Source: Escherichia phage DCP548 | DNA: 64,000 nucleotides | Sequence record: PQ671645.1 | Strand: one strand, 5' to 3' | Shown: piece by piece, positions 3,644-61,651 of the stretch | How positions within the stretch are numbered: the first letter of the stretch is position 1 | Layout of the letters: each line of letters starts with the position of its first letter | Translations under genes and position numbers: made by a program | The notes under the pieces: model-generated | The model's database searches: none | What the model was told of the DNA's origin: nothing | The model's input: the letters and a program-made list of their open reading frames with translations, nothing else

Positions 3644-3957
3644 ATTTCCTCACAGAATGCCCATTCAGCATGATAAACTGTAGCACCTTTAGTATCATTC
3701 ATTTGAACTACATCTACCGGAGAAATTACTCGATAGAGTCGTGGTTCACCTCCATAAGAGCGTGCTGCTCGTCCTGCATAAATCTTTGCTAAACCGATAT
3801 CTTCAGTAAAGAATACACGATCCAAGTTTTTCTTACGTCCAGTTTCGGACAGAACTCCTGTTTCTTCAGGAGGACAAAGCATGTTTTCGATGTTAGCTGA
3901 ACTACTTGAACCGTGATAAAAAATCTTAAATTCTGCTTTACAATCGATGGTTTTCAT
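3640..3957 (-). CDS. Arr-like ADP-ribosyltransferase-fold protein
   Basis: 105 aa; FYHGS...RVFFT...YAGRAARSYGGEPRLYRV parallels rifampin-ADP-ribosyltransferase motifs (FYHGT ... IYFS ... YIYIVEP); own early promoter upstream. Confidence 0.45.
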   Translation of the reverse strand: MKTIDCKAEFKIFYHGSSSSANIENMLCPPEETGVLSETGRKKNLDRVFFTEDIGLAKIYAGRAARSYGGEPRLYRVISPVDVVQMNDTKGATVYHAEWAFCEEI

Positions 3958-3963
3958 TTTGTT

Positions 3964-4012
3964 CTCCAGTAGTTGATAGGTCTATAATAACACAACTACT
4001 GGAGAAGTAAAC
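3964..4012 (-). promoter_or_regulatory. early promoter with 12-bp inverted repeat, upstream of Arr-like gene
   Basis: Minus GTTTAC, 17 nt, TATTAT; perfect inverted repeat CTCCAGTAGTTG / CAACTACTGGAG flanks the -10. Confidence 0.55.
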
Positions 4013-4387
4013 TTAAAAATGTAATTTAGATACATCTGCGTTGATTTCACTTTGGTTTGCGTCATATGCAATTAAACGAACCGCTTTAGATGGGTCATTC
4101 AATGCATAGAAATGATGGAACATTGCTCGAACGATATCACCATTTACGAGTTCTACCTGGATAGGAGAACCTTTTTCGAGTTGGAAATGTTCATAAGCTT
4201 TGATGGTTCGCAGATAATCAAGTTTTTGATTTCCGGCTCCAACGATTTGTACGATACGTTTGCCCATGTTTTCCATACGAGATACAATAGTTTTAGGAGC
4301 AAGAATAACGTAGGTTGCCAGCGGAGAAACTACTTCAACAGTTGTGTTTTCGGTGATTGCAGTAAAAATTGCTTGAGACATATTCAT
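4013..4387 (-). CDS. hypothetical protein
   Basis: 124-aa minus ORF, ATG at 4387 with GAGAGG RBS; early promoter upstream. Confidence 0.5.
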   Translation of the reverse strand: MNMSQAIFTAITENTTVEVVSPLATYVILAPKTIVSRMENMGKRIVQIVGAGNQKLDYLRTIKAYEHFQLEKGSPIQVELVNGDIVRAMFHHFYALNDPSKAVRLIAYDANQSEINADVSKLHF

Positions 4388-4416: not shown

Positions 4417-4446
4417 ATCATATCATGCCTAGAGGGAGATGTAAAC
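4417..4446 (-). promoter_or_regulatory. early promoter upstream of ORF 4013..4387
   Basis: Minus GTTTAC, spacer, TGaTATGAT extended -10. Confidence 0.5.
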
Positions 4447-17850: not shown

Positions 17851-18813
17851 TTATTTCCAAGTCAGTTCGCAGGTCAGTTGAAGAAGCATATACATAACAT
17901 GTAATTCAATATTACTTGCTAATCCATGAAACTTATTGTTTTCGCCTGCAATTTCATAAAGCGAAATAATACTTTTACCAGGTGCAACTTGGTCATAACA
18001 TTCTGAAACTAATTTATCGATGAACCATGAATAATCTGCGGCATATTTTGGAGCTAATGCACGAAGCTGTTTGATATCTTTGTTCTTCATTGCTTCTATG
18101 ACATCAGAGACTGTGCCACGGTCATTAGTTACGATAGACAAAATACCCGCATCAAGAACACCTTTAGACGAGTACTGGTCTAATTGACCGATTGTGCGAC
18201 GAAAGTCCGGGAAGTTCTTTTTAACAAGAGCTGCAACAACTTTCATATCAACGATTTCGATATTTTCGTTCTTACAGATTTCAACCATACGATGAATCAT
18301 TTTCTTCATCATCGAGATTTTATCTTCTTCGGTTGGACGTCCGAATTCGATAACTCGACAACGACTACGTAATGGTTCAATAATTCCATCGATGTTGTTA
18401 GCAGTAATAACAATAGAGCAGTTACTAGAGAATTCTTCCATAAACGTACGAAGGTGACGTTGTGATTCGGCGAGGCCACTACGGTCAAATTCATCAATAA
18501 CAATAACTTTAGGCTTGCCTTCCATTGAGACTGAACGAGCGAATGCGGTTAACGGACCACGCACAAAATCAATCTTACAATCAGAACCGTTGACAAACAT
18601 CATTTCGGCATTGATATCATTACATAATGCTTTTGCTACTGTTGTTTTACCTGTGCCAGGAGAAGGAGAGTGCAAAATAATATGAGGAAGTTTTCCTTTA
18701 GATACTAAAGACTTGAATGTTTCATGGTCATACGCAGGCAGAATACATTCGTCAATGGAAGAAGGACGATATTTCTGTTCTAGAATGTGTTCTTTGGAAT
18801 TGATAGTAATCAT
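17851..18813 (-). CDS. 44: clamp loader AAA+ ATPase gp44
   Basis: 320 aa; Walker [11 protein letters not shown], Walker [12 protein letters not shown] motif. Confidence 0.93.
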
Positions 18814-18839
18814 GTAATTTTCCTCATTATCATTAAACT

Positions 18840-18855
18840 GGAGGATTTCTCCTCC
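18840..18855 (-). other. RNA hairpin in the 45-44 intercistronic region
   Basis: GGAGGA-GAAA-UCCUCC on minus RNA, upstream of the gene 44 RBS. Confidence 0.4.
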
Positions 18856-18888
18856 ATAATAGTACTACATTAAACGTAAAGCTTTGAC

Positions 18889-20046: not shown

Positions 20047-20247
20047 TTATTCGTAGAAGTCGGTAACTGTCCATGCGGAATTGCGATTAGACATTATTTT
20101 ATTATACTCATCTTTAAAAGCAGATTTGAGCATTTGTTCAGTAACAATATGTTCTTCACCTGAAAACGTATTGGTCAAAACATATTTTTTAATTTCAGGG
20201 ACAACGAGAAGATGTTGGCCAGTTGAATACTCCATGTTGTTCTCCAT
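20047..20247 (-). CDS. hypothetical small protein
   Basis: 66-aa minus ORF. Confidence 0.4.
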   Translation of the reverse strand: MENNMEYSTGQHLLVVPEIKKYVLTNTFSGEEHIVTEQMLKSAFKDEYNKIMSNRNSAWTVTDFYE

Positions 20248-20289
20248 TTAATTTGATGTGGTCATTATAACCACATCGTGTTAAAGCGT

Positions 20290-26221: not shown

Positions 26222-26286
26222 GATATTTTCCTCATTTTAAGACGATAGGAAGATAATAACATTCGTCTTCCTATCGTTGTATATTA

Positions 26287-27175: not shown

Positions 27176-27474
27176 GGCTTAATTTCCTTCGCAATTGAAC
27201 AGAAGATACCACGGTCACAAAGCATTTCACCAATTTCTGGATATTTGATCGAACGGTACCAAACATCCAGGCTTGAAACTCTGGTTATCTGTACTGCATT
27301 ACCATTGACAGAATAGTACTGGTCAACCTTAATTTCTTTATCTTCAATTGTCATTTTATTTTCCTCTATAGTGGATGGTTTAATCTTAACACATCTATTG
27401 AGGATGTAAACTGTTTTATGAAAATATTTTCGATTTGAGAGGGGCACAAGGAGATAGTGAAGTGAAGATTCCAA
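27172..27474 (-). CDS. hypothetical protein
   Basis: 100-aa minus ORF. Confidence 0.4.
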   Translation of the reverse strand: MESSLHYLLVPLSNRKYFHKTVYILNRCVKIKPSTIEENKMTIEDKEIKVDQYYSVNGNAVQITRVSSLDVWYRSIKYPEIGEMLCDRGIFCSIAKEIKP

Positions 27475-31247: not shown

Positions 31248-31427
31248 TTAATAAATGTTATAAAAGTCACGATGGAAACGTTTGTATTGGCGAATCATTC
31301 TTTTAGTAGGACGTGTTACCGAAATGATTGAAGTCCTCATGTTCGGATTGTTTGGAGCACCAATTATAACAAATTTCCAAGATTTTTGACCGTTTGTTCT
31401 TTCGCCAAAAAATAATGCAGTTTTCAT
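31248..31427 (-). CDS. small basic protein, paralog-family member (59 aa)
   Basis: Hand-found; ...VTRPTKRMIRQYKRFHRDFYNIY; below track cut-off. Confidence 0.4.
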   Translation of the reverse strand: MKTALFFGERTNGQKSWKFVIIGAPNNPNMRTSIISVTRPTKRMIRQYKRFHRDFYNIY

Positions 31428-31436
31428 AATAAGCCC

Positions 31437-31850
31437 TTAACTTAAACGTCTTTCTAAATATTCAATGTATTCCGCTGCGGCTTGCATCAGATTACCTTCA
31501 TAACCGTCATTATTTTCTTGGGCGGCTAATTTAGCTAAAGCATAAGAAATACGTTCACCTTCGAATTCGCCAAGTCCACCATCACAAACTACTTGGTCAA
31601 TTTCTTCGAGTTCATCTATTGAATGGGATTCCCAGAAGCACCAAAGAGAAGTATCACGGTCATAGATGCAAAGTTTCTCACCTGTGTTCAACATCACTTC
31701 GATAATGCCATGGTCGCCATAACCATCTTCGGTAGTAGTACCAATTACCTTGATGATCGTATCTTTCTTTAATTCAGGAAACTTATCTTGGAGTTCTTCG
31801 TCTTCTTTAACAATCTTGAACCATTTACCGCGAGTTTCAGAAATATTCAT
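31437..31850 (-). CDS. hypothetical acidic protein
   Basis: Track ORF trimmed to ATG at 31850 (MNISETRGKW...) because the upstream part overlaps ORF 31852..32049. Confidence 0.45.
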   Translation of the reverse strand: MNISETRGKWFKIVKEDEELQDKFPELKKDTIIKVIGTTTEDGYGDHGIIEVMLNTGEKLCIYDRDTSLWCFWESHSIDELEEIDQVVCDGGLGEFEGERISYALAKLAAQENNDGYEGNLMQAAAEYIEYLERRLS

Positions 31851-31851
31851 A

Positions 31852-32049
31852 TCAATATTCTCTATAAAAGTTACGATGGGAACGTTTAGCTTTGCGAAGC
31901 TGACGTTTAGTAGGACGAACTGTAAATGGTTGTCCAGAGAAAAAATTCGGATCGGTTTTAATAAGCAAATACCAATCATGCTTGCCATTTTTTAATAAAC
32001 GGTACAATAATTTAACTTGCATAATAATCTCTTCCCATTTCCATATCAA
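31852..32049 (-). CDS. small basic protein, paralog-family member
   Basis: 65 aa ending ...FTVRPTKRQLRKAKRSHRNFYREY. Confidence 0.45.
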   Translation of the reverse strand: MIWKWEEIIMQVKLLYRLLKNGKHDWYLLIKTDPNFFSGQPFTVRPTKRQLRKAKRSHRNFYREY

Positions 32050-32150
32050 TTAATTCATTTATTGAAGGTTCATCATAACACGTTTCTTCGTCATTGTAAA
32101 CTGTTTCGACGTCTGGCTCGACTGTCTCCCATCGAGCCGAATACCACGGT

Positions 32151-32507
32151 TTAACCCCGGAGTTTATTGAGCTCTTCATAATCAATCCAGGATTCTAGTC
32201 CGGATGGCAGGTCACATTCAATGTTCCACAGAAGCTCTTCAATGGCTTGCAGGCGATTATATTCTTCAACGGTAATGGTAACCATTGGTGCAACCGGTTC
32301 TGCCTTTTTAACCATCATATCGTTCATCAGGACGTAAAGGTCATCACGAACGACAGTGTCGTTCCAACCCCATGATTTGGCTTCGTAAGCTAATGATGAA
32401 GGGAGCACATTTAAAACTTCAATAATAGTTGGAGCATCAGGACCAAGTTCATTGGCACAAACTTCGTATACATCTTGGAAATCTTTAAGATTTAATGAAT
32501 ATGTCAT
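32151..32507 (-). CDS. hypothetical acidic protein
   Basis: 118-aa minus ORF. Confidence 0.45.
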   Translation of the reverse strand: MTYSLNLKDFQDVYEVCANELGPDAPTIIEVLNVLPSSLAYEAKSWGWNDTVVRDDLYVLMNDMMVKKAEPVAPMVTITVEEYNRLQAIEELLWNIECDLPSGLESWIDYEELNKLRG

Positions 32508-32782
32508 TTAAAATATTCTCGTAGTTGGTCAAATCCACCAATGTGACTTCCGTCAGGAGCAAACACTTGAGGCATAGTCAATCCGACTTGTGATTCACGT
32601 CCAAGCTTAACCAGAAGCTCAGCAATTTTCTCATCGTCAAACACACCTTTTTCTGGCATAACATTAATGAATTCAAATGGCTGTTTCTTAACAGTCAGCA
32701 ATCGTTTCGCATTATCACAATAAATGCATTTATGAATAGTAGAGTCATACCCGTACACTTTAAACATTATTTTTCCTTTCAT
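32504..32782 (-). CDS. nrdC: thioredoxin/glutaredoxin NrdC
   Basis: FKVYGYDSTIHKCIYCDNAKRLL...GGFDQLREYFK matches remembered T4 NrdC; track start likely a few codons too long. Confidence 0.88.
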   Translation of the reverse strand: MKGKIMFKVYGYDSTIHKCIYCDNAKRLLTVKKQPFEFINVMPEKGVFDDEKIAELLVKLGRESQVGLTMPQVFAPDGSHIGGFDQLREYFK

Positions 32783-33173
32783 CGATTAAATATGCAACGC
32801 CAAATACAATACATGTAATAAAACCTGTGATACAGATAGAAACCAACAACACTGTACCAAAGAACCAAATCAAGTTATCTTTAGTAGTTTGTTTGATATC
32901 CATCTCACGAATTTCTATAGCTATCGTATCACCTTTATTCAGAAGCGTATAAAACGATGGCGATACACGCCTGTCAAAAACTCGTCCTTGCTCATCTTTA
33001 TAGACTGCAATAAATTCTAATTTAGAATATTTTCCTGTAGATTGGCCTGAGATTAATTCCACTACCTCCACAGGAATTACTTTAGTTTCCATGTAAGTAT
33101 TCTGGCTGTTCCAAATGAATGGAATAATAGTAAAAACTAAAGCTGCGATAAAACAACGAAGGCTATATCTCAT
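32760..33173 (-). CDS. membrane protein
   Basis: 137 aa with N- and C-terminal TM segments. Confidence 0.45.
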   Translation of the reverse strand: MRYSLRCFIAALVFTIIPFIWNSQNTYMETKVIPVEVVELISGQSTGKYSKLEFIAVYKDEQGRVFDRRVSPSFYTLLNKGDTIAIEIREMDIKQTTKDNLIWFFGTVLLVSICITGFITCIVFGVAYLIDERKNNV

Positions 33174-33478
33174 TATAATGTTCTCTCAAATTTGTGGAAG
33201 CATTTACGGCATTTCAATTTCAAGTTATCAGTGGTCCAGTTAACCAGTTGGACTTGGATAGTTCCACATTCCGGGCACGGATGTTTTGCTGCCGATTTGG
33301 CAGCATTTTCACGTCGTTCAACCATTTTCATTATTTCGTTCCATGCCGGAGGAACGAACTCTTCTTCAACGTGGATTTTATCTCGCTGAACAAATTCAAT
33401 CTTTGAACTATCGTCAATAAACTTAACCAAACCGTGATTAGTGTTCATATCAATATCCTCTAAAAGACGTAGTTTCAT
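33173..33478 (-). CDS. putative zinc-ribbon protein
   Basis: 101 aa; CPECG...CRKC pair. Confidence 0.45.
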   Translation of the reverse strand: MKLRLLEDIDMNTNHGLVKFIDDSSKIEFVQRDKIHVEEEFVPPAWNEIMKMVERRENAAKSAAKHPCPECGTIQVQLVNWTTDNLKLKCRKCFHKFERTL

Positions 33479-41122: not shown

Positions 41123-41229
41123 TTTACCATACTCGTTTCAATAAGATTCACTATGCCGTTTACCATGTTATAAGTAAACATCGGATAATTGTATTGTACT
41201 ACAACATAAGCGATAAGCAAAAGTTTCAT
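41119..41229 (-). CDS. small hydrophobic peptide (36 aa)
   Basis: Hand-found; GGAGAA RBS before ATG at 41229; early promoter upstream. Confidence 0.3.
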   Translation of the reverse strand: MKLLLIAYVVVQYNYPMFTYNMVNGIVNLIETSMVK

Positions 41230-41248
41230 TTTGTTCTCCATTTGTTTT

Positions 41249-41287
41249 GGTAGGATTACTATATCATAGTCCTACCAAGACGTAAAC
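41249..41287 (-). promoter_or_regulatory. early promoter with inverted repeat
   Basis: Minus GTTTAC, 18 nt, TATAGT; inverted repeat GGTAGGA/TCCTACC. Confidence 0.5.
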
Positions 41288-43195: not shown

Positions 43196-43378
43196 TTATA
43201 GTGAATTCACGTAGTCAATGAGTTCTTGTTCTTTCCTGTCAAATGATTCCAACAATGTTTGATATTCTTCATCCGTCAAAGGAGCATATTCATCGTACGC
43301 ATTGGTGGCTGCTTGCTCATCCAATAGGTCATGGATAAGTTCGAACAGTTTAGCTTTCTCTTCTTTAGTTAATTTCAT
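43196..43378 (-). CDS. hypothetical small acidic protein
   Basis: 60-aa minus ORF. Confidence 0.4.
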   Translation of the reverse strand: MKLTKEEKAKLFELIHDLLDEQAATNAYDEYAPLTDEEYQTLLESFDRKEQELIDYVNSL

Positions 43379-43587
43379 TTAGGTTCACCTTCTTTAACGA
43401 AATCCGGGTAAGGGTAAAATCCTGAGTAAAACCCTTCACCTTTATGATTGCTACAACCTTTGTTCGAACAGTAACACCAATAATCAAAATCACAAGCCAT
43501 TTCGTCATTGCATAAAGCAAAAACTACAGGCCATTCGCATTTTTCGCATTTAGCACCTGTAAGAATTTTTGTTTGACTCATAACCAT
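43375..43587 (-). CDS. small Cys-rich protein
   Basis: 70 aa with 8 Cys. Confidence 0.4.
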   Translation of the reverse strand: MVMSQTKILTGAKCEKCEWPVVFALCNDEMACDFDYWCYCSNKGCSNHKGEGFYSGFYPYPDFVKEGEPK

Positions 43588-45141: not shown

Positions 45142-45600
45142 CTAGATTTTAATCACTGCTTTAGAAGCTTTTCCGGGTAGTCGTTTACTGTTAATAATAG
45201 CCATTCTGCATTGAAGAGTCTTCATTTTGAATGCTGGATTTTCGCGACAAACTGTAAGTCCTAACCAAAGATTTCCATCAGTTATTTCTAAACGGCCTGG
45301 GCGATATTCGACACCTTCGACAAAATCTTCATCAACATCTGGACGTGCTGGCATTGATAAAAATTCTGCAACTTCTTTAACATGATTTTTTACTTTACGA
45401 AATAATTCAAAAACGTAATTCTCATCTATTTCTCTCTGGATGGCACGATCTAAGAGATGTTGAGAATACTTGATATGAAAGCCTGGTAGTCCAAGAGACT
45501 TTGCAGCATCTTTTATACTGGCATTTATTTTGCGGAACTCCGTTTCAAAGATTCGACGGAGTTTATTACGGCGGATAAAAACGTCTGAATTGATAGTCAT
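45142..45600 (-). CDS. regB: RegB endoribonuclease
   Basis: 152 aa; MTINSDVFIRRNKLRR...GVEYRPGRLEITDGNLWLG...QCRMAIINSKRLPGKASKAVIK matches remembered T4 RegB. Confidence 0.85.
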   Translation of the reverse strand: MTINSDVFIRRNKLRRIFETEFRKINASIKDAAKSLGLPGFHIKYSQHLLDRAIQREIDENYVFELFRKVKNHVKEVAEFLSMPARPDVDEDFVEGVEYRPGRLEITDGNLWLGLTVCRENPAFKMKTLQCRMAIINSKRLPGKASKAVIKI

Positions 45601-45608
45601 TTTGATTT

Positions 45609-45657
45609 CTCCTCTAGTTGACAGGTCTATAGTAACACAACTAGAGGAGAAGTAAAC
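45609..45657 (-). promoter_or_regulatory. early promoter with 12-bp inverted repeat, upstream of regB
   Basis: Minus GTTTAC then -10 region; perfect inverted repeat CTCCTCTAGTTG / CAACTAGAGGAG. Confidence 0.55.
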
Positions 45658-48822: not shown

Positions 48823-49236
48823 TTAGTAAATTGATTTACCATAGTATTTGTACCAAGTCGGACGTTGAGCAATTTTTTCGTCTAAGCGTGCTTGACTTAT
48901 CGCAATGGACGCTTCGGACGGGACATAATTATTACGAAATTCGGCAGGGATGTCGGAAATATCCTGGACAGTCGTGTCCTTGATTTTGAAACCACGTTTC
49001 AAGCATTCGGCGATTAGCTCGATTTGACGTAAACGTAAAAATTCGAGTTTGTCGTAAAAGAATGTTACGTGACCTGTGCCTAAGATAAATGTTGGAGAGA
49101 TTTTAAAATCCTTGACACGTTTACCATTTTGAACATGTTTACGGACTGCACCAAATACGCGTGGTAATTCACGATACTCGGCCATAAGATGTTGGTCAGT
49201 CAGTTCAGAAACAAGTGTTAAATTGATACGAGTCAT
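48823..49236 (-). CDS. denV: endonuclease V (pyrimidine-dimer DNA glycosylase) DenV
   Basis: Trimmed to ATG at 49236 ([12 protein letters not shown]...[19 protein letters not shown]) with GGAGGA RBS; matches remembered T4 DenV. Confidence 0.92.
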
Positions 49237-49242
49237 AATTTC

Positions 49243-49293
49243 CTCCAAGTAGTTGATGAATGTATAGTATCAAAACCCTTGGAGGAAGTAAAC
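49243..49293 (-). promoter_or_regulatory. early promoter with inverted repeat, upstream of denV
   Basis: Minus GTTTAC at 49293..49288; inverted repeat CTCCAAG/CTTGGAG. Confidence 0.5.
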
Positions 49294-49294
49294 A

Positions 49295-49576
49295 CTATTT
49301 TTCTGAAGCGCCTGAAATATATTTTTCAAGACGTTGTTTCATCAGCGAGCCGTTCTTAGCGATTTCTTCCGGTTTATCGCACATACGTAACAAGGCTTCA
49401 AGCTTAGCGATATCGCTGGTACGTTCAAATTTGCGAGTATCTATCTTACTAGCAAGTTCAGAAATACGTGCTAATAGACTTTCGGCTTCAACCAAAGCTG
49501 CACCTAACTTAGTTGCAAATGTGTCAGTAGCTTCGTTAAGAATAGATTCTGATAAAAATTCACTATATGTTTTCAT
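49295..49576 (-). CDS. internal head protein (capsid-targeted)
   Basis: Trimmed to ATG at 49576 giving [10 protein letters not shown] leader; start overlaps the lysozyme stop. Confidence 0.6.
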
Positions 49577-50061
49577 ATATACGCTTTCCAAGTTCCTGTT
49601 TTAAATGTTGAGATTACGCGTTTCGCGCGATTAGGTGTCTGACGATACCATTTAGATTGTGCTAGATTTACTGCCGCTTCATCCCAACGTTTCTGTTGAA
49701 GCATACGAAGAGAATTAGTAAAACCAGCGACGCCTGCTACACCCATTTGGAAGACCATATTGACCAATGCACATCGACGAACCGCATCTAAAGAATCATA
49801 TACCGGTTTAAGTTTAACATTACCCAAGATTCCGCGAACAGCTTTATCAACGTCTTCGTTAAATAACTTTTCAGCCTCATCAAGGGTAATTGTACCGTTG
49901 CATTTACGCCCGATCATTCTGTCAAGTTCAGCTTTAGCTACAGCTAAAGACGGGTTCTTTGTTACTAAATGACCTATGCCAATTGTCCAAAAGCCTTCAG
50001 TGTCTTTGTATAAAGTCAGTCTAAGACCTTCGTCATTACGAAGCATTTCAAATATATTCAT
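49573..50061 (-). CDS. e: lysozyme (endolysin), T4 e-type
   Basis: Trimmed to ATG at 50061 ([31 protein letters not shown]...) with GGGAGG RBS; matches remembered T4 lysozyme. Confidence 0.95.
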
Positions 50062-50095
50062 AATACCTCCCACGTTTATAGGAGGTATTTATTAC

Positions 50096-52318: not shown

Positions 52319-52519
52319 TTATTTTGACATTTCTTCGATGTCACGACGATACCCATCACGAACTTCACGAAGAGCTTCAAGGCCACACATAGGCTCGATA
52401 CCAGTAATGTGAACTTGATTAATCTGATACTCTACATCTTCTAACTGAGCGAAAACATAACGACGTTCTGCTTCACAACCAGGTTTAGCTTTACCGAAAC
52501 GTTTATTCAAAGTAGTCAT
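52319..52519 (-). CDS. hypothetical small protein
   Basis: Track ORF starts at GTG; trimmed to ATG at 52519 (MTTLNKRF...) with GGAG RBS. Confidence 0.4.
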   Translation of the reverse strand: MTTLNKRFGKAKPGCEAERRYVFAQLEDVEYQINQVHITGIEPMCGLEALREVRDGYRRDIEEMSK

Positions 52520-52547
52520 TTTTATATCTCCATTCACTCATTTGTTT

Positions 52548-52587
52548 TGATAGGTCTATAGTATCAACAACTACAGACCTTGTAAAC
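52548..52587 (-). promoter_or_regulatory. early promoter with inverted repeat
   Basis: Minus GTTTAC at 52587..52582; inverted repeat GGTCTATAGT/ACTACAGACC. Confidence 0.5.
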
Positions 52588-53580: not shown

Positions 53581-53832
53581 TTAAATTTCACGACATGCGA
53601 TATTATATTCATCCCAGAGGTCGTCATGTGAAGCCTCTACCAATGGAACGATTGTACCGTTTATGTCTTCATTATAAGGGCAAATTGTACAGTGCGCATC
53701 TTCGAATCGGATGCCTTTGTGTTCAGATTTTTTATAACGCATATCAAATATCTTTGCAAACTTTTCACGAGTAATAGTTTTAGCAACTACTTCGGTTCCG
53801 ATACTTTCGTAATAAATCATTGTAGACTCCAT
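53581..53832 (-). CDS. hypothetical protein
   Basis: 83-aa minus ORF; early promoter upstream. Confidence 0.45.
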   Translation of the reverse strand: MESTMIYYESIGTEVVAKTITREKFAKIFDMRYKKSEHKGIRFEDAHCTICPYNEDINGTIVPLVEASHDDLWDEYNIACREI

Positions 53833-53842
53833 TTAATTTGAT

Positions 53843-53878
53843 AGGGCTACTATAACATAGCCCTATCTTGTTGTAAAC
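53843..53878 (-). promoter_or_regulatory. early promoter with inverted repeat
   Basis: Minus GTTTAC at 53878..53873; inverted repeat ATAGGGCT/AGCCCTAT. Confidence 0.5.
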
Positions 53879-57700: not shown

Positions 57701-57743
57701 TGGTTGATAAGTCTATAGTATCATGTTCTTAGAAGAAGTAAAC
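57701..57743 (-). promoter_or_regulatory. early promoter
   Basis: Minus GTTTAC at 57743..57738 with TATAGA/TACTAT -10 region. Confidence 0.45.
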
Positions 57744-59083: not shown

Positions 59084-59752
59084 TTACACTATAGAAGCAA
59101 TTAAATTGTTTACTTTATCATCTTTATAAACTTCAGAATAGTGGAGTTCATAAATTTCCCAGCCCAGGGATTTTATAATATCATGTCTTTCCTGATAATA
59201 TGGGGCCAGAATTTTCTTGTTATGATCGGAGTAATGTTGGTTACCGTTAACTTCAATAATTATTTTCTTATCCATCAAAGCAATGTCACAGGAATATGCT
59301 CTATTTTTAACAGGTTGATATTCCTCAACAAATTGTATATTTGCTTCTATTAATTTATTTTTCAAAAATTCGCACGGAACAGATTTGAATTTTGAATTCT
59401 TTTTCCAAGGGTGTTTATCTGGATTTTCCTTTAACCAGGTCTTCCGGGCTGCTGATATCTTTTGTTTGGATTCAGACGAATGCTTTCGTCCTGTGCCTGC
59501 AGCAGACAATTTTTCTCTTGTTTCTTCAGAAACAACTAAAGAAATGCCCTTCTTTTTGGCAACCATGAATTGATTTAAATTACCAGATTCTTTGCGTGCT
59601 TTATTCATAGCAGCGACTGCATTTTTAGAACCCTCTTTATAAGAGGCGAGTTTTGGATTTTCAGAACACCATCTGGTATGACTTGCCATCCATCCCTTTG
59701 GTTTATCAGAAATATCAAATTCTTTATTGCAGTGTTTGCAGATGCTCATCAA
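59084..59752 (-). CDS. homing-endonuclease-like protein (zinc finger + NUMOD3-like repeats + DUF559/PD-(D/E)xK-like C-terminus)
   Basis: 222 aa; N-terminal CKHC...HTRWC; SEETREKLSAAGTGRK and SESKQKISAARK NUMOD3-like repeats; C-terminal YSCDIALMDKKIIIEVNGNQHY. Confidence 0.5.
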   Translation of the reverse strand: MMSICKHCNKEFDISDKPKGWMASHTRWCSENPKLASYKEGSKNAVAAMNKARKESGNLNQFMVAKKKGISLVVSEETREKLSAAGTGRKHSSESKQKISAARKTWLKENPDKHPWKKNSKFKSVPCEFLKNKLIEANIQFVEEYQPVKNRAYSCDIALMDKKIIIEVNGNQHYSDHNKKILAPYYQERHDIIKSLGWEIYELHYSEVYKDDKVNNLIASIV

Positions 59753-59776
59753 AATACTCCTATTATATTATAAGAG

Positions 59777-59784
59777 TATTTATA
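59777..59784 (-). promoter_or_regulatory. late-promoter-like TATAAATA
   Basis: Exact TATAAATA on minus strand about 25 nt upstream of the homing-endonuclease-like ORF. Confidence 0.35.
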
Positions 59785-59808: not shown

Positions 59809-59883
59809 TGGTGACCCTGGCTGGTTTCGATCCAGCTACCTATCAGTTATGAGCTGACAGCTCTCCCATTGAGCTACAGGGCC
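59809..59883 (-). tRNA. tRNA, anticodon CAU (Met or Ile2), with encoded CCA
   Basis: Hand-folded cloverleaf on minus strand: acceptor GGCCCTG/CAGGGTC, D-arm GCTC-AATGGGA-GAGC, anticodon loop CTCATAA, T-arm GCTGG-ATCGAAA-CCAGC, 3' ACCA. Confidence 0.7.
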
Positions 59884-61319: not shown

Positions 61320-61339
61320 TTTATTCTCCATTTACTCAT

Positions 61340-61385
61340 TTGTTTTGATAGGACTACTATAACATAGTCCTATCATCATGTAAAC
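61340..61385 (-). promoter_or_regulatory. early promoter with inverted repeat
   Basis: Minus GTTTAC at 61385..61380; inverted repeat GATAGGACTA/TAGTCCTATC. Confidence 0.5.
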
Positions 61386-61387
61386 TA

Positions 61388-61651
61388 TTAAATACCAGCT
61401 TCGCGTTTAACATAATCGACGTAAGCTTGGATAGCTTTCTTGCTGGTAATTTTTACCTGACCACGACCATTGCCTTCTTTAGAGTTTTTCTTAACAACTA
61501 CATTACCATCTTTAACACCCCATACATGGACGTAAGTACCGATGTTTCGGTCGTAGAACATTGCATGGTCGTTGTTGTAAGAGAATGATTCGTAGTTCTC
61601 TGTCAGAGTAGAAGATTGAGATTCGGCGATAAATTCTTTATAGGTTTTCAT
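61388..61651 (-). CDS. internal head protein (capsid-targeted), ipI-position
   Basis: N-terminal MKTYKEFIAE leader; sits next to 57B where T4 has ipI. Confidence 0.65.
   Translation of the reverse strand: MKTYKEFIAESQSSTLTENYESFSYNNDHAMFYDRNIGTYVHVWGVKDGNVVVKKNSKEGNGRGQVKITSKKAIQAYVDYVKREAGI

Follow-up and report, generated by a model that had tools for sequence, protein, structure and literature searches.

A 64,000-nucleotide (nt) stretch of the genome of Escherichia phage DCP548 (sequence record PQ671645.1), referred to below as the window, carries on its minus strand a family of early-promoter cassettes, a number of which include an inverted repeat whose 5' arm lies in the spacer between the -35 and -10 elements. 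In the reading that we favour, and to which we assign a probability of about 0.6, these are early cassettes of the promoter-early stem-loop (PeSL) type; in one class of them, class B, the stem would mask the Shine-Dalgarno (SD) sequence of the next gene, and the RegB site located there, in RNA that reads through from upstream, and the sequence that the cassettes share would aid the swapping of open reading frames (ORFs). The occurrence of promoter cassettes with stems, reported earlier in a sequence-only reading of this DNA, is confirmed; the interpretation that was attached to them is partly supported.

A promoter spacer that pairs with the ribosome-binding site

The cassette at 3955-4015 on the minus strand (hereafter the 4012 cassette) extends from the stop codon TAA (4015-4013) of an upstream 124-amino-acid (aa) ORF through the -35 element, the spacer, the -10 element, the leader and the SD sequence to the ATG (3957-3955) of a 105-aa ORF which, by the annotation of the neighbouring genes in phage HX01, precedes and overlaps dmd. 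The -35 element GTTTAC (4007-4012) matches the T4/RB69 early-promoter consensus (PMC1524935). The 5' arm TTCTCCAGTAGTTG (3993-4006) fills the spacer and is followed by TGT; the -10 element TATTAT (3984-3989), followed by AGACCTAT, falls within the hairpin loop, and the start predicted from the description of the RB69 promoter logo is the A at 3977. The 3' arm CAACTACTGGAGAA (3962-3975) includes the SD sequence GGAG (3967-3964) and is followed by CAAA. The resulting stem is a perfect duplex of 14 base pairs (bp) with a folding energy of -21.7 kcal/mol (z = -5.5), and none of 200 shuffled sequences folds as well. A 12-bp repeat had been quoted for this site; it is real, but its 12 bp fall inside the longer perfect stem.

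The cassette at 45598-45657 (minus strand), identified through HX01 as the promoter of regB, has the same layout, with the 5' arm at 45638-45651, the -10 element TACTAT at 45629-45634 and the 3' arm, again including GGAG, at 45607-45620. Its stem (-21.6 kcal/mol, z = -4.9, no shuffle out of 200 folding as well) differs from that of the 4012 cassette by two compensatory base pairs (AG/CT vs TC/GA), and a repeat search recovers the two stems independently (repeats I5 and I7). At both sites the 3' arm begins 8 nt past the -10 element, one base beyond the predicted start. These two repeats were the examples given in the sequence-only reading, which overlooked that the 3' arm of each carries the SD GGAG. 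In the HX01 copy of the 4012 stem one A-U pair is changed to G-U. The 105-aa ORF has no match in Pfam, and many product names in the HX01 RefSeq record (NC_018855.1; L051/L052) look wrong for the size or position of the ORF, among them "ADP-ribosyl transferase" for this 105-aa ORF, "major capsid protein" for 83 aa, "DNA polymerase" for 70 aa and "thioredoxin" for 311 aa.

Census and classes of the cassettes

Mosigvirus phages (PNJ-9, HX01, ST0 and others) are 98% identical to a 5-kb piece of the window, which was placed in the RB69/HX01 group of T4-like coliphages (Mosigvirus). Nearly all ORFs of the window lie on its minus strand, and the synteny with HX01 runs through genes 3, 1, e, the internal-protein (IP) genes, denV, regB, tk, nrd, 55, 47/46 and 45, continues through 44, 62, regA, 43, uvsX and 41, and then reaches dmd, imm and sp, the early region.

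A strict search of the window for GTTTAC-N16-19-TATAVT gives 11 matches, 10 of them on the minus strand, where 0.16 are expected. A looser scan, in which a -35 element GTTTAC, ATGTAC or GTGTAC, a spacer of 16-19 nt and a -10 element TAnnnT had to be followed by an SD sequence, an ATG and an ORF, yields 28 sites on the minus strand and one on the plus strand, against 0.5 +/- 0.7 in local shuffles, and the claim of more than twenty sites is therefore borne out. The spacer is 17-18 nt long in all but two of the 28. Taken out of its gene context, the loose promoter motif is barely enriched (61 matches vs 43 +/- 6).

The cassettes share an A+T-rich stretch (73% A+T in the 25 nt 5' of the -35 element, vs 63% in the window), GTTTAC(A), a 17-18 bp spacer that carries a T(A)TG(T) motif and ends in TaTGt, a -10 element TAtaaT and the sequence AgaCCTATCAA, with CCTATCAA as the conserved start region; the consensus strings are ..AtaAAataGTTTACA.. 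and ..TaTGtTATaATAgaCCTATCAA.., and the SD sequence and ATG of the next gene sit at the 3' end of the cassette. Nolan and coauthors predicted 57 early promoters in RB69 and took transcription to begin with the A of CCTATC, the base that follows a C-rich segment at -3 to -1 (Nolan 2006, PMC1524935). The window cassettes are likewise predicted to be early promoters read by the host sigma-70 RNA polymerase from predicted starts.

Independently of the stems, the conservation of the start region extends well past the hexamers: AG(A/T)CCTATCAA is kept in most cassettes in the 10 nt after the -10 element (for example at 3983-3974 and 61355-61346), and contigs of Aeromonas phages (L034, L037 and L049) repeat the region as AGTCCCATCAAA. 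The leaders at 61385, 52587, 38593 and 41287 have in common CAAAACAAATGAGT(A/G)AAT(T)GGAGA(A/T)(T/A)TAAAATG with a short upstream ATG. Because the frame of this ATG relative to the main one varies between copies, it probably reflects shared sequence and not a conserved upstream ORF.

Helices between the spacer and the downstream segment that score at least 6 are found in 13 of the 28 cassettes, and about half of the promoters are without a convincing stem. In class A (61385, 53878, 52318, 41287, 56685, 61715, 37117, 2494 and 26277/26242), arms of 6-15 bp enclose the -10 element and the predicted start lies within the 3' arm. In class B (4012, 45657, 49293 and 27411; 57743 and 42004 have weaker stems of this kind), the 5' arm directly follows the -35 element and the 3' arm contains the SD sequence. 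Class C consists of a small hairpin entirely within the spacer (35476 and 34480), and further stems occur at the weaker -35 sites 26277/26242 and 25085. In every stem-bearing cassette the 5' arm precedes the -10 element, therefore a locally initiated RNA cannot form the stem and only read-through RNA is able to fold, just as the sequence-only reading had it.

Pairing between the arms is specific to each cassette

For each cassette, the pairing of the spacer with the segment downstream of it was compared with its pairing to the corresponding segments of the other cassettes. Own arms pair with a mean energy of -10.2 kcal/mol, vs -7.4 +/- 0.5 for permuted combinations, and not one of 20,000 permutations was as low. 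The difference is seen for both targets of the 5' arm, the surroundings of the -10 element (z = -4.1 in the window and -12 in related contigs) and the SD sequence (z = -3.3 and -7.7). In 511 unique cassettes collected from 2.4 Mb of related IMG/VR contigs, 58 class A helices were counted where about 6 are expected and 54 class B helices where about 27 are expected. Since own arms pair far better than foreign arms, the stems are selected. The earlier statement that many sites have inverted repeats of 7-12 bp is correct.

An origin of the dyads by chance, or as a by-product of the promoter motifs that flank the -10 element (CTATG upstream and TAGNCCTAT downstream), is hardly credible and is ruled out by the permutation tests: own pairs beat cross pairs that carry the same motifs in every test, individual stems reach z values of -4 to -5.5, and orthologues show compensatory changes. 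It is true that the consensus itself holds a partial dyad (GG at -21/-20 and CC at -3/-2) and that a test for pairing in a fixed register around the -10 element (214 cassettes) gave z values up to about 3 with no clear gain over slid controls; this test is weak because the stems occupy different registers.

Conservation and covariation in related phages

The regB stem is kept in the orthologues. In 15 of 16 IMG/VR contigs, whose regB products are 56-97% identical in aa sequence, a stem of -14.5 to -22.4 kcal/mol joins the bases that follow GTTTAC to the GGAG region, GGAG being always included, and at least five positions change on both sides (CTAGTTG/CAACTAG, CTTGACTG/CAGTTAAG, CTTTATG/CATAAAG and TGTAAG/CTTACA). 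In one lineage an inner stem that flanks the -10 element is nested in the outer SD stem. The regB of one Aeromonas phage (L068), 40% identical, has no such cassette. A MAFFT alignment of the regB leaders was unusable for the identification of pair columns because the stems slide in register between lineages, and per-sequence folds anchored on GGAG were used instead. As with regB, the SD-masking stem of denV is maintained through compensatory changes in other T4-like genera. At the place orthologous to the class A stem of 41287, other genera have stems of unrelated sequence.

The gene behind the 4012 cassette behaves differently, and this weighs against the reading that we favour: its orthologues in the T4 group have only a 5-6 bp UCUCC/GGAGA stem, one further lineage (L010) has no stem, and in Aeromonas phages the stem is of class A. 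How well the stems are conserved thus differs from gene to gene: the inverted repeats are kept firmly, with covariation, in front of regB and denV, but only loosely in front of the 105-aa ORF.

The same comparison bears on the possibility that the dyads are operators at which a dimeric DNA-binding protein shuts the early promoters. The dyad is centred on the -10 element, and the shut-off of T4 early promoters has been described as incompletely understood, which would suit such a protein. However, neither different cassettes nor orthologues have arm sequences in common, although the pairing is kept; the arms are 6-15 bp long and 8-30 nt apart, in variable register; and about half of the cassettes have no dyad. 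With arm sequences unconserved, a dimeric-repressor operator is close to refuted, and we consider it very improbable.

Predicted masking of the SD sequence and of the RegB site

In ViennaRNA partition-function calculations, the probability that the SD sequence of the 105-aa ORF is unpaired is 0.00 in read-through RNA vs 0.75 in local RNA. The corresponding values are 0.00 vs 0.74 for regB and 0.00 vs 0.50 for the 27411 cassette, and the means over the 28 cassettes are 0.35 vs 0.57 (Wilcoxon p = 5e-4). A predicted value of at most 0.11 is reached at 4012, 45657, 49293, 27411, 57743 and 42004, all of them class B.

The target of RegB and ribosomal protein S1 is a single-stranded site with the consensus GGAGRAYARAA (Durand 2006, PMC1702504), and RegB cuts GGAG in the SD sequences of early mRNAs, including that of regB itself, whose promoter is off after 2-3 min. 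Exact matches to this consensus number four in the window, vs 0.4 expected, and all four are SD sequences of cassettes. One of them, GGAGAACAAAA (3957-3967, minus strand), shares bases with the 3' arm of the 4012 cassette and takes in the A of the ATG; folding predictions make it single-stranded in the local RNA and paired in read-through RNA.

These predictions suggest how a class B cassette (those of the 105-aa ORF, regB, denV and about four others) may work. In read-through RNA the stem would fold and hide both the ribosome site and the RegB site, and the gene's own transcript, which has no 5' arm, would expose them, be translated and then be cut by RegB. A class B gene would then be translated essentially only from its own promoter, and the module made of cassette and gene would be independent of its upstream context. 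More tentatively, and at rather less than even odds, we propose that in the Tevenvirinae a subset of early promoters forms such self-insulating modules: transcripts arriving from upstream would be silent and RegB-resistant, expression would be restricted to a brief burst from the own promoter (regB, denV and the ORF before dmd being the cases in point), and the module could be moved without a change in its output.

Several observations count against extending this scheme too far. Masking of the SD sequence is an option for no more than about 6-9 of the 28; the stems of class A stay clear of the SD sequence; and at 57743 and 42004 the putative class B stem has no folding advantage over shuffled sequences. 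The promoter upstream of the 4012 cassette (4446) is itself of the early type, therefore the benefit of discriminating between the two RNAs is not simply temporal. The suggestion that the hairpin tells read-through from locally initiated RNA gains a concrete route in class B, through SD masking and RegB shielding, but for these few cassettes only. On read-through RNA a class A stem would probably serve as an attenuator or as a barrier to processing or a determinant of stability. RNase III, whose known substrates make it an unlikely effector for stems of 9-14 bp, was dropped as a candidate because the stems are short.

Terminators, RNA hairpins or DNA palindromes

The stems might instead be terminators or attenuators of the upstream gene that merely share space with the next promoter. 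In the T4 sequence entry X04567, the label given to repeats A to D is "put. stem-loop structure; pot. transcription terminator", and the authors of the PeSL work found that one stem-loop of phage RB49 cut lacZ expression like a strong terminator, both of which speak against our preferred reading. Separate hairpin-plus-T-run terminators stand directly before the cassettes at 4446, 42004, 38593 and 57743; where such a canonical terminator already precedes the cassette, a stem with the same task would be redundant. Moreover, a U-run is missing behind every stem, the 3' arms running into AACAAAATG, AAATCAAA or CAAAACAAA (A-rich tails), and in a terminator scan that covered 40-60 kb none of the cassette stems was detected on the coding strand. 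Termination would not require the SD sequence to be part of the stem, yet the regB and denV stems hold GGAG in every lineage. We therefore regard termination as an unlikely explanation. As a separate observation, the stem of the 53878 cassette (53840-53867) is terminator-like on the plus strand, with a T-rich tail provided by the complement of the -35 region; this signal, absent from the other cassettes checked, could matter for antisense or late transcription.

Whether masking or termination is considered, the stems are taken to act in RNA. Inside the own stems of the 511 cassettes, the mRNA strand shows 23 G-U and 9 A-C pairs, vs 43 of each in chimeric controls, and the sense strand has a slight folding advantage over the antisense (-0.65 kcal/mol, p = 0.009). 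The excess shrinks to about 16 vs 7 when evident orthologues are collapsed, which tells against us; in smaller cassette sets the counts were 17 to 20 with terminal positions and then 13 to 8, and an exact-pattern scan of IMG/VR for the 3' half of class A found 8 stretches, too few for substitution statistics. The G-U excess, the sense-strand folding and the A-U to G-U change in the HX01 copy of the 4012 stem lean toward an RNA function, short of proof; for class B, the position of the SD sequence is a stronger argument than these counts.

The alternative is that the repeats act or arise as DNA, either as recombination hairpins or cruciforms, or as by-products of quasipalindrome correction that have no function in RNA. 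Mutations templated by quasipalindromes occur in T4, and the stems contain 1,079 Watson-Crick pairs vs 32 internal wobble or mismatch positions. Crossovers in RB49 were mapped to the loop, cassettes are more alike within the genome than between orthologues, and 12 of 39 breakpoints between related genomes fall in cassettes (4.6% expected), and 52319-52581 is a clean indel from one cassette to the next (see below). On the other hand, a DNA-level role gives no reason for the SD sequence to lie consistently in the 3' arm of class B, G-U prevails over A-C on the mRNA strand, and the breakpoint excess is not significant against other intergenic regions. Extrusion is poor for stems as short as 6-14 bp that have loops of 8-30 nt, and shared cassette sequence would suffice for shuffling with no need of a dyad. 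A purely DNA-level account is thus improbable in our view, and we retain the reading in which class B stems act in read-through RNA.

Mosaicism at the cassettes

The breakpoints were obtained by comparison of the window with HX01 and four IMG/VR relatives. Their frequency inside cassettes exceeds the 4.6% expected by position (p = 1e-7), but the excess over other intergenic regions (odds ratio 2.1, p = 0.15) is not significant, which weakens this part of our reading. We therefore do not claim a cassette-specific recombination hotspot. Individual junctions are clear. A unit made of a cassette and a 66-aa ORF (52319-52581, minus strand), with the -35 hexamers of two cassettes, 52587 and 52318, as its limits, is absent from HX01 and from another relative (L054), both of which carry a single chimeric cassette at this junction; and an IP-like gene is replaced between two cassettes at 61390-61629, the ORF in question at this IP locus being one of 87 aa (61388-61651) that has a substitute in HX01. 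The comparison of cassette positions between related genomes, which had been proposed as a check, thus finds junctions at cassettes and a clean indel, but no significant excess over other intergenic regions.

Non-orthologous cassettes within this genome are 82-87% identical. The regB cassette of the window is 87% identical to the window cassette that leads to the ATG at 3957, vs 71% to the regB cassette of T4, and the T4 denV cassette is 84% identical to the same 3957 cassette. This likeness within the genome fits exchange or conversion between cassettes, and the shared cassette sequence may provide the homology for recombination that swaps the accessory ORFs flanked by it. Not all mosaic variation is associated with cassettes: the blocks of small overlapping ORFs at 31249-33451 and 43198-43576 are strongly diverged from HX01 and have no cassettes nearby.

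Individual stems and other promoters with stems

The remaining cassettes with notable stems are all on the minus strand. In class B, the denV cassette (49234-49293) pairs TTCCTCCAAG (49278-49287) with CTTGGAGGAA (49240-49249; repeat I15, z = -4.1), and the cassette before a 60-aa ORF (27352-27411) pairs TCCTCAATAG with CTATAGAGGA with one mismatch (z = -2.4). In class A, the arms TGATAGGACTA / TAGTCCTATCA of the cassette at 61329-61385 surround the -10 element TATAGT, with the predicted start in the 3' arm (z = -4.8); the covarying stem of the cassette at 53818-53878 is formed by GATAGGGCTA (53858-53867) and TAGCCCTATC (53840-53849; z = -4.3); and the cassette at 41227-41287 has a 15-bp stem with two mismatches, GTCTTGGTAGGACTA / TAATCCTACCAAAAC (repeat I25, z = -3.6). 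A perfect 12-bp stem at 26242-26277, ACGATAGGAAGA / TCTTCCTATCGT, surrounds the -10 element TATTAT of a site with a weak -35 element (z = -4.9).

Stems embedded in promoters may extend beyond the early class. Two sites that resemble MotA-box middle promoters (CGCTTTA or GCTTTA, about 12 nt, then TATAAT or TACTAT) are found together with stems at 20247-20285 and 18839-18856 on the minus strand: GATGTGGT / ACCACATC encloses the -10 element before a 66-aa ORF (20047-20247), and a GGAGGA-GAAA-TCCTCC hairpin follows the -10 element before the clamp-loader gene (17851-18813). A 221-aa ORF at 59084-59749 (minus strand), which has a NUMOD3 motif and resembles an endonuclease in its C-terminal part, adjoins a tRNA-Met gene (59809-59883) and occupies a place where HX01 has 47 bp vs 754 bp here. 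Its leader contains the late-promoter-like sequence TATAAATA and an inverted repeat at 59752-59781 (AAATACTCTTATAAT / ATTATAGGAGTATTT, minus strand) that covers the SD sequence, a layout resembling that of T4 segB and other homing-endonuclease genes.

Comparison with known systems

The cassettes bear on the independent expression of small accessory early genes, many T4-type phages being used in therapy, and on the shuffling of accessory genes between genomes. Their closest counterparts are the PeSL cassettes, for which a role in gene shuffling was proposed (Arbiol 2010, PMC2839356; Comeau 2014, PMC4122927). The resemblance noted in the sequence-only reading is apt, as the placement of the stems fits the definition and the cassettes stand at mosaic junctions. 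PeSL cassettes likewise combine an A+T-rich stretch, a sigma-70-type early promoter, a stem-loop, an SD sequence and an ATG, occur in many copies in variable early regions, and include among their named subclasses stems between the -35 and -10 elements or overlapping the -10 element, other permitted positions being 5' of the -35 element, across it, or shortly ahead of the start. PeSL cassettes are accompanied by insertions, deletions and replacements of ORFs between close relatives, for which the window offers the individual junctions described above. They were described, however, in RB49/phi1, T4/PST and nt-1/KVP40 and not in the RB69/HX01 group, and for T4/PST the authors located the stems immediately 5' of the promoter. 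An SD sequence within the 3' arm, as in class B here, is a feature of none of the five subclasses, and the role proposed was termination or attenuation, not translational masking. Mini-circles that arise by recombination between flanking cassettes, and terminator or attenuator activity of the stem-loop, are further features of PeSLs.

In T4 itself, entry X04567 (58.3-65.5 kb, deposited in 1986) records inverted repeats A/A' to D/D' that flank the -10 elements of ipIII, ipII, denV and orf61.9 (regB). The architecture is identical, with the ribosome sites of denV and regB inside C' and D', and the regB and denV cassettes of the window are the orthologues of these elements; in T4 they were labelled only putative stem-loops and possible terminators, and the arms differ by compensatory changes. 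For promoter-overlapping stems that mask the SD sequence, the label "terminator" may be wrong. The RefSeq record of T4 has no promoter features. The predicted early promoters of RB69 have in common with the cassettes the -35 element GTTTAC, the -10 element TAnnnT, a C-rich -3 to -1 segment and a location, in many cases, before novel ORFs, and a text search of Nolan 2006 (PMC1524935) found no mention of inverted repeats, hairpins or dyads.

The working logic proposed for class B is that of T4 genes e, soc, 49 and I-TevI, in which a helix including the SD sequence and/or AUG forms only in RNA started upstream and an internal promoter gives translatable RNA (PMC3014915). As in these genes, the SD sequence lies in a helix and the transcript of the promoter is without the 5' strand, the masking being a prediction here. 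The known cases use a late promoter, TATAAATA, that delays expression, whereas the promoter here is of the early GTTTAC/TAnnnT type, so that the cassettes share the logic but are not strict members of this group. Gene e of the window (49573-50061, minus strand) has such a hairpin of its own: AATACCTCC ... GGGAGGTATT at about 50062-50095 masks the SD sequence, with a late-promoter-like TATAAA(T/C) in the 5' strand, and its covariation in relatives makes it an internal positive control for the logic of a promoter within a hairpin. In the literature covered, no experiment deals with an early-promoter version of this control, and SD masking by an early-promoter stem is undescribed in X04567, the PeSL papers and the 2010 T4 reviews, key older sources being outside this scope. 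As to the RegB/S1 sites, four cassette SD sequences match the 11-nt consensus and the SD sequence of regB is a known target; such sites are defined as single-stranded, whereas here GGAG would be double-stranded in read-through RNA, which predicts resistance.

The kind of element described here is, then, already known from the T4 entry of 1986 and from the PeSL work, and the cassettes of the window are new members of it in another genus. The masking of the SD sequence from an early promoter, together with the shielding of the RegB site, is the only part with some novelty; if true, the self-insulating module would be the early-promoter mirror image of the late switch of genes e and soc.

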